This document shows, in pieces, positions 42,778-46,930 of a DNA stretch of 64,000 bases (positions within the stretch are counted from its first letter, which is position 1; the number at the start of each line of letters is the position of its first letter). A program made the position numbers and the translations under genes. The notes beneath the pieces are model-generated. The model was not told the origin of the DNA. It ran no database searches and saw only the letters and a list, made by a program, of their open reading frames with translations. The stretch is from an uncultured delta proteobacterium (GTDB taxonomy: Bacteria; Myxococcota_A; Polyangia; Polyangiales; B10-G4). The stretch spans positions 128,001 through 192,000 of the forward strand of contig CAVSGI010000014.1 of the NCBI GenBank assembly GCA_963727445.1. Direction: 5' to 3'.

Positions 42778-45423
42778 CTAGCCCTCGTCGGTCTCGTCCG
42801 GCGGGACGTCGTCGTCCTCGGGCGGGTCCTCCGCGGTGGCCGGCGGGACCGTGCTCGCCGGGGGAGGCGAGACGAGGCCGGTGTCGTCGTCCGGGTCTTC
42901 GACCTCCACCGGCTCGACGTCCACGACCTTTTCGCCTTCGTTGAGCCGAATGACACGCACGCCCTGGGTGTTGCGGCCCGCCACGCGGATCTCCGAGACG
43001 CGCGTCCGGATGACCTGGCCGCCGTCCGTGATCACCACGAGCTGATCGTCCGGTCGCACCAGGCGGAGCTTCACCATCGGCCCGTTTCGCTCCGAACAGT
43101 CGATGGCGATGATGCCCTTGCCGCCGCGGTTCTGCGGCCGGTGCTCTTCGACCTCGGTGCGCTTGCCGTAGCCGTGCTCGCTGACGGTGAGCACCTGCTG
43201 GGTGTCGTCCTCGATGACGTCCATGCCGACGACCTCGTCGCCTTCGCGCAGGTCGATGCCCTTCACGCCGCGCGAGTCGCGGCCCATGGCGCGCACGTCT
43301 TCGACGTCGAAGCGGATGCTCATCCCGTTCTTGGTGCCGAGGATGACGTGCTGCCCCGCGGTCACCACGCGCGCGGAGAGGAGCTCGTCGTCGTCGGCGA
43401 TGGCCACTCCGATGATGCCCGTCTGCCGCACCTTCGCGTAGGCCGAGAGCTCGGTGCGCTTCACCCTGCCGCCCTTGGTGCAGGTGAGCAGGAACGCGTC
43501 GTCGGCGAACTCCTGCACCGGCACGATCGCCGCGATGGTGTCGGTGGGATCCATCCCGACGAAGTTCACGATGTTTCGACCGCGTGCCGTCCGTGACCCG
43601 GAGGGGATGTGATAGACCTTCTTCAGGTACACGGTCCCCTTGTCGTTCAGGAAGAGCACGTGGGCGTGCGTGTTCGCGACGAAGACCGAGCTGATGAAGT
43701 CCTCGTCGTGCGTGTCCATGGCGCGCAGGCCCTTGCCGCCGCGCCCCTGGGCTCGGTACTCGCCCAGCTGAACGCGCTTGATGTAGCCCTGGTGGCTCAC
43801 CGTCACGACGACGTCCTCGTCCGCGATCAGGTCTTCGATCGAGATGTCGCCTTCGGCCTGGACGATCTCGGTGCGCCGCTCGTCCCCGTAGCGCTCGCGC
43901 ACCTCGAGGAGCTCACCCGTGATGACCTCCATCAGTCGCTCGTCGGAGCCGAGGATCTCGCGCAGGCTCGCGATGAGATCGCAGATCTGCCCGTATTCGG
44001 TGGCGAGCTTCTCGCGCTCGAGGCCGGTCAGCCGTGCGAGGCGCATGTCGAGGATGGCCTTGGCCTGCCGCTCGCTCAGGAAGTAGTCGCCCTTCGCCTT
44101 CGCCTCTTCGATCTCCGACTCGGGCCGGCCCGCCCGGCGCACGAAGTCCTCGAGGCCCTTCAGCGGCAGCTTCATCAGCTTCTCGCGCGCCTCCTCGGGA
44201 TCCTGCGACTTGCGGATGGTGTCGACCACCAGATCGACCTCGGTCACCGCCATGCCGAGACCTTCGACGAGCTCCTGCTGCGCGAGCGCCTGGCGCAATT
44301 CGTAGCGCGTGCGGCGAAGCACCACCTCGCGGCGGTGGACGATGAAGTGCTCGAGCGTCTCCTTGAGGTTCAGGAGCTTCGGCTGACCGTTGACGATGGC
44401 CAGCATGTTCACGCCGAAGGTGCTCTGCAGCGGCGTCATCTGATAGAGCGAGTTGAGGACGATCTCGCCGTGCGCGTCCTTCTTCAGCTCGATGACGATG
44501 CGCATCCCGCTGCGATCGGACTCGTCGCGAATGTCGCTGACGCCCTCGAGTCGCTTCTCCCGGACGAGCGCGGCGATCTTCTTGAGCGTCTCGGCCTTGT
44601 TCACCTGATACGGGATCTCGGTGATGATGATCTGCTCGCGATTCGACTTGCCCTTCATCTCCTGGATGTCGGCGCGCGCGCGCATCACCACCCGGCCGCG
44701 GCCGGTGTGCAGGCCCTGGCGGATCCCCGAGGTGCCGTAGATGAAGCCCGCGGTGGGGAAGTCGGGCCCCTTCACACCGAGGCGACCCTGATCATCGTCG
44801 ACCATCAGCTGATCGATCGTGAGCGTCGGGTCCTCGATCAGGCGGATGGTCGCGTCGATGATCTCGCGCAGGTTGTGCGGCGGGACGTTCGTCGCCATGC
44901 CGACCGCGATGCCGCCCGAGCCGTTGACGAGAAGATTCGGGAAGCGGCTCGGCAAGACGAGCGGCTCGTGCTCGGAGTCGTCGTAGTTCGGACCGAAGTC
45001 GACGGTCTCCTTCTCGATGTCGGCGAGCAGCTCCGAGGTGAGCCGCGACATCCGCACCTCGGTGTAACGCATGGCCGCGGCGGGGTCGCCGTCGACGGAG
45101 CCGAAGTTCCCCTGGCCGTCGACCAGCGGGTAGCGCATGGCGAAGTCCTGCGCCATGCGCACCAGCGCGTCGTAGACGGCCTGGTCACCGTGCGGGTGGT
45201 ACTTGCCGAGGACGTCGCCGACGATGCGGGCGCTCTTCTTGTAGGAAGTGTTCCAGCGAACCCCCTGCTCGTGCATCGTGTACAGGATCCGACGATGGAC
45301 GGGCTTGAGCCCGTCGCGCACGTCCGGGATCGCGCGCCCGATGATGACGGACATCGCGTAGTCGAGATACGAACGGCGCATCTCGTCTTCGATGGTGACT
45401 GGGAGCTTTTGGGACTCGGCCAT
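42778..45423 (-). CDS. gyrA: DNA gyrase subunit A
   Basis: [25 protein letters not shown], catalytic AAMRYTE, GyrA-box QGRGGKG, acidic tail. Confidence 0.98.
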
Positions 45424-45447
45424 GTGGGCTCTGGCCCTATCACGCCT

Positions 45448-45499
45448 CGCGCGCGCGCGCACGCGCGTACGCACGCGCGCGCGTACGCGCGCGTGCGCG
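45448..45499. promoter_or_regulatory. 52-bp perfect purine/pyrimidine-alternating tract upstream of gyrA (Z-DNA/cruciform potential)
   Basis: CGCGCGCGCGCGCACGCGCGTACGCACGCGCGCGCGTACGCGCGCGTGCGCG. The sequence is certain; the regulatory role is inferred. Confidence 0.55.
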
Positions 45500-45600
45500 A
45501 GGCCCCGCCTGGCAACGTCGTTTCCACCCCCGCCAACTGAGTTGATGGCTGTGGGGCCCGATGGGATTGGAAAAGCCAGTCATTCCCATCGACTCATCCT

Positions 45601-45642: not shown

Positions 45643-45984
45643 ATGAACCGTTTCAGCCTCTCGATCGTCCTCATCGCGGCTCTCGCCGTGGGATCGAGCG
45701 CCGTGGGATGCGCCACCCCGACCCTTCCCCTTCCGCCTCCAGCAGCCCTGACAGCCGGCCCGCCGGACGCCGACGGCATCGTCACCATCCGTGGCGAGTC
45801 GCTGGCCGAAGCCTACGTCTTCTGCCTCAATCTGGACTTGGATGCGGGCGTCATCGTCCGCGCCGATACCGACGGCAACTTCACCTGCCAACCGCGGGCC
45901 GAAGTGGGGAATTACGTCAGTGTTTGGCAGGAGTTGGGGTCCGACAGCGGCCCCCCACTGGAGATCCGCATTCCCGCCCCCTGA
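45643..45984 (+). CDS. Small hypothetical lipoprotein (Ig-like beta sandwich)
   Basis: Lipobox AVGC followed by TPTLPLPPP; ADTDGNF. Confidence 0.7.
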   Translation: MNRFSLSIVLIAALAVGSSAVGCATPTLPLPPPAALTAGPPDADGIVTIRGESLAEAYVFCLNLDLDAGVIVRADTDGNFTCQPRAEVGNYVSVWQELGSDSGPPLEIRIPAP

Positions 45985-46075: not shown

Positions 46076-46930
46076 ATGGACACGGCGATGCGGGATCTGG
46101 AGCGACTGGAGGAGCAGGACGATGCTCCCGGGCGGCGAATCGGCACCCTGATGATGGCGGCCCTCGCGACCGTCGGTTTGATCTTCGCGATGGCGATCCT
46201 CCTCGGAGGTACGGGGGAGTCCGAGGTGGAGGCCCAGGACGATCCCCTCTCGGTGCTCGACCGGGCCGCCGGCTTCGAGGTCGACGAGGAGGTGCTGCCC
46301 GAGGAGGACGAGGCCCCCGAGGTGGACCGTCGCAATCTGGCCTTTCCCGAGACCCTCGCGGAGTACGACACCCGCCCCGAGGTCGAGGCCGCGCTGGCCG
46401 CCGCGGCGGCCGAGCTCGAGCATCCGGAGCCGATCCCCTCGGGTGTAGCCCTCGGAGACATCGCCTCGGGCAGCATCGAGGACGCGCCGGTCCCCTCCCC
46501 CGACGCCCCGCCGATCCGCACCGAGCATCCGGTCGACGACACCCTGCCCTCCGCCCTGCCCGCGGCCTCCGCCTTCGGTGGCACGCCCGAGGTCCTGAGC
46601 CGGGCGCGCGCCCACGATCCGCTGGTCGCCGCCGCGTTCCCGCCCGAAGCCCCTGGCCGTCCCGTCGCCTCCGGCATGAACGGCAAGTACACGATCCAGG
46701 TCATCAGCTATCAGCATCCGACCGACGCCGACGTCTTCGCTCAGGGCCTTCGCGCACGGGGCCATCACGCCTTCGTCGTGTCTGCCGACATCCCAGAGCG
46801 CGGGCGCTTCTATCGCGTTCGCATCGGCCCCTTCGACACCCAGCGTGAAGCGGATGCCTACCGCCACCAGTTCGAAGACGAAGAGCGGATGAACACCATC
46901 GTCATCCGACGCCGAGACGAACGAGGCTGA
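46076..46930 (+). CDS. SPOR-domain (peptidoglycan-binding) membrane protein
   Basis: One TM, acidic linker, C-terminal YTIQVISY...FYRVRIGPF..REA. Confidence 0.88.
   Translation: MDTAMRDLERLEEQDDAPGRRIGTLMMAALATVGLIFAMAILLGGTGESEVEAQDDPLSVLDRAAGFEVDEEVLPEEDEAPEVDRRNLAFPETLAEYDTRPEVEAALAAAAAELEHPEPIPSGVALGDIASGSIEDAPVPSPDAPPIRTEHPVDDTLPSALPAASAFGGTPEVLSRARAHDPLVAAAFPPEAPGRPVASGMNGKYTIQVISYQHPTDADVFAQGLRARGHHAFVVSADIPERGRFYRVRIGPFDTQREADAYRHQFEDEERMNTIVIRRRDERG

Follow-up and report, generated by a model that had tools for sequence, protein, structure and literature searches.

A predicted Z-DNA-forming tract at the likely gyrA promoter of an uncultured Polyangiales bacterium and its relatives

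Introduction

In Escherichia coli, supercoil sensing by the gyrase genes maps to the −10 region and to FIS, and in Mycobacterium smegmatis the relaxation element of gyr is a short downstream palindrome. A natural alternating tract, the RY box, is reportedly present in the bop promoter of Halobacterium, where it is said to form supercoil-sensitive non-B DNA and the promoter to be stimulated by supercoiling. The gyrA tract described here shares with the RY box its natural origin, its alternating sequence and its location at a core promoter, although the bop promoter is an archaeal TATA promoter and does not serve a topoisomerase gene. Transcription from gyrase promoters is higher on relaxed DNA (PMC6639932). 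The E. coli gyrA and gyrB and the M. smegmatis gyr loci have both the gene and the expected logic, namely, gyrase being turned up on relaxed DNA, in common with the locus studied here; in the portion of that source used for the comparison, neither the E. coli nor the M. smegmatis element is described as a Z-forming tract (PMC6639932).

With respect to the proposed mechanism, the nearest counterpart is an engineered one. A (CG)13AATT(CG)22 insert placed upstream of ilvPG in E. coli delays the activation of this promoter by the 13 turns that it absorbs (PMC10783518). As would be expected of the gyrA tract, the CG tract at ilvPG takes up 10–13 negative turns and can shift the supercoil response of a promoter with no protein bound to it. 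Unlike this insert, which is artificial and lies 449 bp away (PMC10783518), the gyrA tract is natural, conserved and located in the likely core promoter, and it sits at a gene that sets supercoiling. In E. coli, Z-prone sites are depleted in 5′ flanks, according to the same source (PMC10783518), and a 2026 review considers the direct in vivo evidence for Z-dependent regulation in bacteria to be limited (PMC13463272). We found no report of a natural Z-prone tract at a bacterial gyrase promoter in the open-licence literature in PMC and bioRxiv, supplements aside.

Results

An exceptional alternating tract upstream of gyrA

The window, that is, the whole stretch of 64,000 nucleotides analysed here, comes from the genome assembly of an uncultured member of the Polyangiales and includes the following features:

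42778..45423, minus strand: gyrA, DNA gyrase subunit A, 881 aa (PF00521 and PF03989), with the ATG at 45423–45421
45448..45499, no strand: alternating pyrimidine-purine tract of 52 bp, i.e., 26 whole YR units; predicted Z-DNA former
45447..45447, no strand: T-A pair at the promoter-proximal end of the tract; B–Z junction predicted from the sequence
45500..45500, no strand: A-T pair at the promoter-distal end of the tract; likewise a predicted B–Z junction

The initial annotation had described a perfect purine/pyrimidine alternation over 52 bp, consisting mostly of CG steps with a few CA, TG and TA steps, starting 24 bp upstream of the gyrA ATG and without any match elsewhere in the window. These observations hold: the tract is made up of 21 CG, 2 CA, 2 TA and 1 TG units, 24 bases separate it from the ATG, and no other alternating run exceeds 15 bp in the window or 23 bp in the 9.47-Mb, 69% G+C assembly, where the 52-bp tract (a length that stands as assembled, in an assembly with frameshifts in other genes) is the longest of all. 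Only 10 runs in the genome reach 20 bp. Up to 21 bp, each additional base cuts the number of such runs by about half; beyond that, there are only a single run of 23 bp and the single run of 52 bp, which places the tract far beyond chance. Equally long tracts in unrelated intergenic regions, which would have argued against a special role, are thus not common in this genome. The frameshifts affect gyrB, topA and parE (G000:C13:271800-274300, C2:208000-211100 and C14:241500-243500) and are probably sequencing errors.

The identity of the downstream gene as gyrA is based on the Pfam matches and on the presence of a separate parC-like paralogue located beside parE elsewhere on the same contig. Its product contains the sequence QGRGGKG, which we take to be a GyrA-box-like motif. 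Public sequencing runs yielded a best share of 0.12, with contigs that matched only gyrA coding DNA of other organisms, and a pattern search of metagenomes for genus-level relatives found none. Tracts of comparable length, 42, 43 and 54 bp, are present upstream of gyrA in relatives.

Patchy distribution of the tract among gyrA loci of the order

We examined 130 gyrA loci of the order, originating from 129 of 150 matched genomes and one other (the 21 genomes left out belong mostly to well-sampled families). Within 300 bp upstream of gyrA, alternating runs of at least 14, 18, 24 and 30 bp occur at 42, 35, 22 and 12 of the 130 loci, respectively, three of which had less than 300 bp of upstream DNA; related genomes being non-independent samples, these counts are descriptive. 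Absence of the tract from orthologous loci, which would have spoken against the initial annotation, is thus not what is seen. The 35 loci with a tract of at least 18 bp span 10 families and 21 of 74 genera. Elsewhere in the same loci (380 kb, mostly coding), only four runs of at least 18 bp and none of at least 24 bp were detected, i.e., 0.003 per 300 bp. Among the genomes with a gyrA tract of at least 26 bp, this tract is the sole run found in 10 of 18, and the others contain one or two more; the anchored pattern used here, which recovers runs that start with a pyrimidine, misses some runs, and a 19th genome was added because of a tract at topA. Long tracts found elsewhere in relatives are mostly coding repeats or low-complexity DNA (12 inspected, in addition to the topoisomerase-linked one at L286).

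When mapped on a quick GyrA tree (129 rows, one short row having been dropped, and with one unreliable long branch), the distribution of the tract requires 13 gains or losses, at least seven of which are forced by strong branches. No tract of at least 18 bp is found in 95 of the 130 relatives, including all members of families f3 and f17 and of genus g9. Many of these retain the extended −10 element and the gene order described below, and the tract is therefore dispensable.

Anatomy of the likely gyrA promoter region

Further elements of the intergenic region and the divergently oriented genes are:

45434..45442, minus strand: extended −10-like element TG-A-TAGGGC (family consensus TGnTAnnnT, the last base here being C)
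45511..45525, no strand: proximal copy of the palindrome GYCAAC-N3-GTTGRC, conserved; likely protein-binding site
45532..45546, no strand: distal copy of the same palindrome, 21 bp from the proximal one
45643..45984, plus strand: small lipoprotein-like gene, divergent from gyrA, no Pfam match
46076–46930, plus strand: SPOR-domain gene following the lipoprotein-like gene, divergent from gyrA

In the direction of gyrA, the two palindromes (45546–45532 and 45525–45511) are followed by the tract, 5 bp, TG-A-TAGGGC (45442–45434), 10 bp and the ATG. A scan for sigma-70 −35/−10 elements and terminators gave no match and did not pick up the extended −10 either; the promoter assignment comes from conservation. 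TGnTAnnnT occurs within 250 bp of gyrA at 29 of the 35 tract loci (1.2 expected) and at 42 of the 95 others (4.8 expected), and a motif of this kind lies within 45 bp of 30 of the 35 tracts, downstream of the tract in 27 cases and upstream in three. We infer that TG-A-TAGGGC is the extended −10 promoter element of gyrA. The start site would then fall at about 45426–45428, and the predicted mRNA would be nearly leaderless. With +1 placed in this way, the tract would span approximately positions −21 to −72, including the −35 region, and hence would remain untranscribed. A TTG in the −35 slot is seen in none of the 29 tract promoters that were aligned. The seven bases 3′ of the −10 element are 92% G+C in the aligned tract promoters, and the discriminators of tract-less relatives are equally G+C-rich.

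The gene order around gyrA is also conserved. Among the loci with enough upstream DNA, the lipoprotein-like gene and/or the SPOR gene is transcribed away from gyrA in 32 of the 34 with a tract and in 50 of the 90 without one. Divergent transcription of this kind would load negative supercoils into the DNA between the genes. The small lipoprotein-like gene itself (45643–45984 in the window) occupies this divergent position at 52 of the 124 loci examined.

Conserved and variable features of the tract

Across the order, the tracts differ in sequence and range in length from 18 to 54 bp. Most of them abut the extended −10 element and overlie the −35 region or the spacer, with a distance to the −10 that varies from −2 to 32 bp upstream; in genus g7, the tract lies 18–19 bp downstream of it. 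What is conserved, instead, is the dinucleotide register. Of the 69 tract ends, 60 complete a pyrimidine-purine unit (36 of 42 when one tract per genus is considered), compared with 43% in a background of 579 chance runs of the genome, and an A follows a terminal G at 40 of 51 ends (24 of 32 with one tract per genus), compared with 45% in the background. The initial annotation had pointed to substitutions that preserve the phase, and these are real: the register is kept across 13 of 14 interruptions, as opposed to 40% in the background, the sole exception being found in a run of 12 bp from a family without tracts. The interruptions comprise single substitutions and phase shifts in a ratio of 10:1, the corresponding background figures being 69:142. 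At B–Z junctions, base extrusion occurs only at an A-T pair adjoining the Z unit, as seen by crystallography and fluorescence in the data taken from PMC6212838, and the bias towards A after a terminal G matches this restriction (PMC6212838). Both the register and the A-T junction pairs are those expected of a Z-DNA element. In the gyrA tracts of the 35 genomes, AT steps are avoided (1% versus 7%) and TA units favoured (7% versus 4%) relative to chance runs, a preference that goes beyond what Z energetics explain.

Alternating DNA might also work without leaving the B form. Pyrimidine-purine steps are flexible, and the tract could be a flexible or twist-sensitive segment which tunes RNA polymerase binding without a Z flip. 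Such a role would fit the overlap of the tract with the spacer and the −35 region in most carriers, and it gains from the bias of TA over AT that Z energies leave unexplained. It fails, however, to predict the whole-unit ends, the A-T junction pairs and the strict register across interruptions, and does not anticipate tracts as long as 54 bp or those located downstream of the −10 element; overall, we regard it as unlikely.

Length variation raises the further question of a slippage-prone dinucleotide microsatellite, either neutral or tuning gyrA through the spacing between the upstream sites and the −10 element. Within a single genus, the tract ranges from 24 to 54 bp in even steps, transitions, which are the commonest mutations, preserve alternation by themselves, and the distribution is patchy. 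Yet slippage does not explain why a genome's one long tract should lie at gyrA in 10 families, nor the tracts at archaeal gyrB (see below), and it leaves the junction bias unaccounted for; moreover, with about 27% of their units being other than CG, these tracts are poor microsatellites. A microsatellite origin is thus very improbable.

Predicted energetics of the B–Z transition

The constants of the energy model were K = 2220RT/N, a B-form twist of 10.4 bp per turn and 0.4 turn per junction. Z-Z, melting and cruciform states are not part of the model. Dinucleotide and junction energies are those given in the relevant part of PMC3024258.

The genome-wide ranking of Z-prone sites proposed in the initial annotation, when carried out with this simplified model, puts the 52-bp tract first at σ of −0.04, −0.05 and −0.06, with ΔG values of −6.6, −19.5 and −32.4 kcal/mol compared to −1.9, −8.7 and −18.5 kcal/mol, respectively, for the runner-up. 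Flipping the tract is predicted to cost 33.6 kcal/mol and to absorb 10.1 turns, with a whole-tract midpoint that moves from σ −0.028 in a 20-kb domain to −0.052 in a 2-kb one. In a 5-kb domain, the predicted onset is near σ −0.034 for the window tract and falls between −0.033 and −0.040 for all 35 tracts; in 300 random windows, the median onset is −0.048 and the 99th percentile −0.041, the gap being due in part to how the tracts were selected. The tract is thus long, CG-rich (21 of 26 units) and low in predicted B–Z energy, as a Z-DNA element should be. A search for the Z-alpha domain (PF02295) produced no match in this genome, nor in any of the control genomes.

Self-complementarity of the tract

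That the tract is self-complementary, as the initial annotation had remarked, is correct insofar as it folds as DNA into a long hairpin, with an energy of −36.9 kcal/mol when the flanks are included and a z of −2.2 relative to dinucleotide-shuffled sequences. There is no excess, however, over shuffles that keep the alternation (z +0.77), and palindromy appears to be a by-product of alternation. The same is observed across the order, where the mean z against such shuffles is −0.22 over 21 genera, none of them below p 0.05, and the flanks of the tracts are not complementary (58 of 168 positions, p 0.19). The best Rfam score was 26 bits against a cut-off of 98, so that no family came near its threshold.

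These results bear on the suggestion that the tract works through a cruciform in the DNA or through a hairpin formed by the leader RNA of gyrA. The long hairpin that the window tract can form, in DNA or RNA, is what speaks in its favour. Without excess self-complementarity, the cruciform is left unsupported, and so is the 5′-UTR hairpin, because a conserved extended −10 element separates the tract from the ATG and, in most carriers, the tract lies upstream of that element, outside the leader as delimited by the predicted start, and would stay untranscribed. We consider this explanation, in either form, to be exceedingly improbable. An RNA role is possible only in genus g7 and at L346, a locus outside the order, where the tract is downstream of the −10 element.

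The tandem palindrome

Altogether, 63 GYCAAC-N3-GTTGRC sites were identified upstream of gyrA across the order, mostly with a tandem spacing of 21–22 bp, and they are found in many families, tract-bearing or tract-less. The tandem palindrome is likely to be the site of a transcription factor. A genome-wide search for the palindrome did not reveal a clear regulon. Two further tandem pairs in the genome (G000:C21:190673 and C21:210108) precede lipoprotein-like genes.

The location of this conserved palindrome just upstream of the tract lends some weight to the possibility that a repressor or activator of gyrA docks on the tract, whether in its Z or its B form. Candidates would be gyrase or topoisomerase IV, a Z-DNA binder or a partner of the factor that recognizes the palindrome. 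Eukaryotic topoisomerase II is proposed to contain a Z-binding domain (PMC10341724), which counts in favour of a protein site; however, the part of that study drawn on here shows no Z binding by bacterial gyrase (PMC10341724). Furthermore, the two elements occur independently of each other: the palindrome is present without a tract at 11 of 11 loci of family f3, whereas the tracts of family f7 come without a palindrome (0 of 7 loci). The fixed sequence and the helical phase relative to the promoter that characterize a protein operator are absent, given the tract lengths of 18–54 bp and the variable distances. Because the position of the tract floats around the −10 element, a topological effect fits better than a phased protein site, and we hold a protein landing site of any kind to be improbable.

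Tracts at other topoisomerase genes and in other prokaryotes

The initial annotation proposed looking for alternating tracts at the gyrase and topA genes of relatives, and the outcome depends on the gene. For gyrA, the expectation is borne out by the 35 of 130 loci described above. For gyrB, it is not: in 29 tract-positive genomes, no tract of at least 18 bp was found within 600 bp, the longest being three of 17 bp. These three (L267, L268 and L273) include two from genus g7, in which they lie downstream of a −10-like motif, as is the case at gyrA of that genus. Among the type IA topoisomerase loci, one of 11 has a tract (35 bp, 240 bp upstream of a topA-like gene; L286:2042-2076), with topA being under-sampled, as the Toprim search reached 11 of 30 genomes at threshold. 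In the window genome, gyrB, topA, parC/parE and a second type IA topoisomerase gene lack a tract at their starts. One type IA topoisomerase gene and its neighbours (G000:C8:18500-22400, L033) encode proteins that look out of keeping with the remainder of the G+C-rich genome and might represent a mobile element or contamination.

Outside the order, tracts of at least 18 bp were detected at two of 60 gyrA loci (of 69 matched). At L306, a 20-bp tract fills the 17-bp spacer between TTGACT and TAAAAC of the gyrA promoter, and at L346 the tract follows TATAGT. Shorter runs are present at L305 (15 bp, in the spacer between TTGACA and TATATT of gyrA) and L302 (17 bp). L305 and L306, which belong to other classes of the phylum, have near-consensus −35/−10 gyrA promoters. 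Among gyrA loci from diverse metagenomic bacteria, none of the 77 with enough upstream DNA (of 80; median 55% G+C) carries a tract of at least 18 bp.

A pattern consisting of a 22-bp tract followed by TGnTAnnnT had 119 matches across 185,579 species. Eighty of these could be broken down into 11 at gyrA, two at archaeal gyrB and 67 that are not beside a gyrase gene. The 11 gyrA matches are labelled mostly as Sandaracinaceae, Polyangiales or Myxococcota; because the pattern was tuned on the order's gyrA loci, with which several of these 11 share tracts, they are not independent, whereas the two archaeal ones are. The remaining 67 lie close to genes for plasmid Rep proteins or sigma factors, to a mixture of other genes, or to repeats, as judged from 102 of the 118 ORFs that flank 61 of the loci. 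Since 67 of the 80 matches do not adjoin a gyrase gene, such tracts evidently also serve other ends or none. In gut bacteria, for instance, long alternating tracts lie upstream of plasmid Rep3 initiator and sigma-70 factor genes (L138, L152, L172 and L175), and a Prevotella MAG carries a repeated alternating palindromic tract of 25–28 bp with a shared A+T-rich tail at no fewer than seven sites (L145, L158, L164, L165, L187, L194 and L214).

At archaeal gyrB, a 36-bp tract (1195–1230) is located just upstream of a TATA-like box in L139, and a 29-bp tract (about 1197–1225) just downstream of one in L210. The tracts are of the same kind as in the window, where the setting is a stand-alone gyrA with an extended −10 of the sigma-70 type. 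The similarity between bacterial gyrA and archaeal gyrB in the presence of such tracts suggests convergence of the two domains on the same physical solution, as far as can be judged from the sequences.

Discussion

The distribution, register and position of the tract, all read from genome sequences, support the view that it is a selected, Z-prone element at the likely core promoter of gyrA. As to its function, we favour a B–Z supercoil switch that damps gyrA, which we consider somewhat more probable than all other readings together. In a highly underwound chromosome, the tract is predicted to flip into the left-handed Z form, absorbing about 10 helical turns. This would remove the torsional energy needed to melt a promoter with an approximately 92% G+C discriminator and/or block the contacts of RNA polymerase with the −35 or early transcribed region, so that gyrA transcription would fall. 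Upon relaxation, the tract would return to the B form and gyrA would be expressed again, closing a feedback loop that would require no protein. Relaxation is expected to repress promoters that have a G+C-rich discriminator (PMC8422995), and the gyrA promoter may therefore need an extra device for homeostasis. The direction of the effect could also be the opposite. Furthermore, the lack of a tract of at least 18 bp at gyrB in 29 tract-positive genomes sits awkwardly with such a switch, as gyrase needs both subunits.

In a broader perspective, it appears an evenly balanced proposition that a protein-free thermostat made of Z-DNA, a natural switch in the gyrase core promoter that shuts off gyrase transcription above a set superhelical density, has arisen in prokaryotes repeatedly and independently, as exemplified by myxobacterial gyrA and archaeal gyrB. 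For experimental work, the 35 natural variants, with tract-less sister promoters as controls and a clonable element of 100 bp, constitute a ready resource. The question of a native role for Z-DNA in bacterial gene regulation is an old one, and evolution marks the gyrase promoter as a locus where a Z switch makes mechanistic sense. If the thermostat is real, it would represent a clear native regulatory function for Z-DNA in bacteria.
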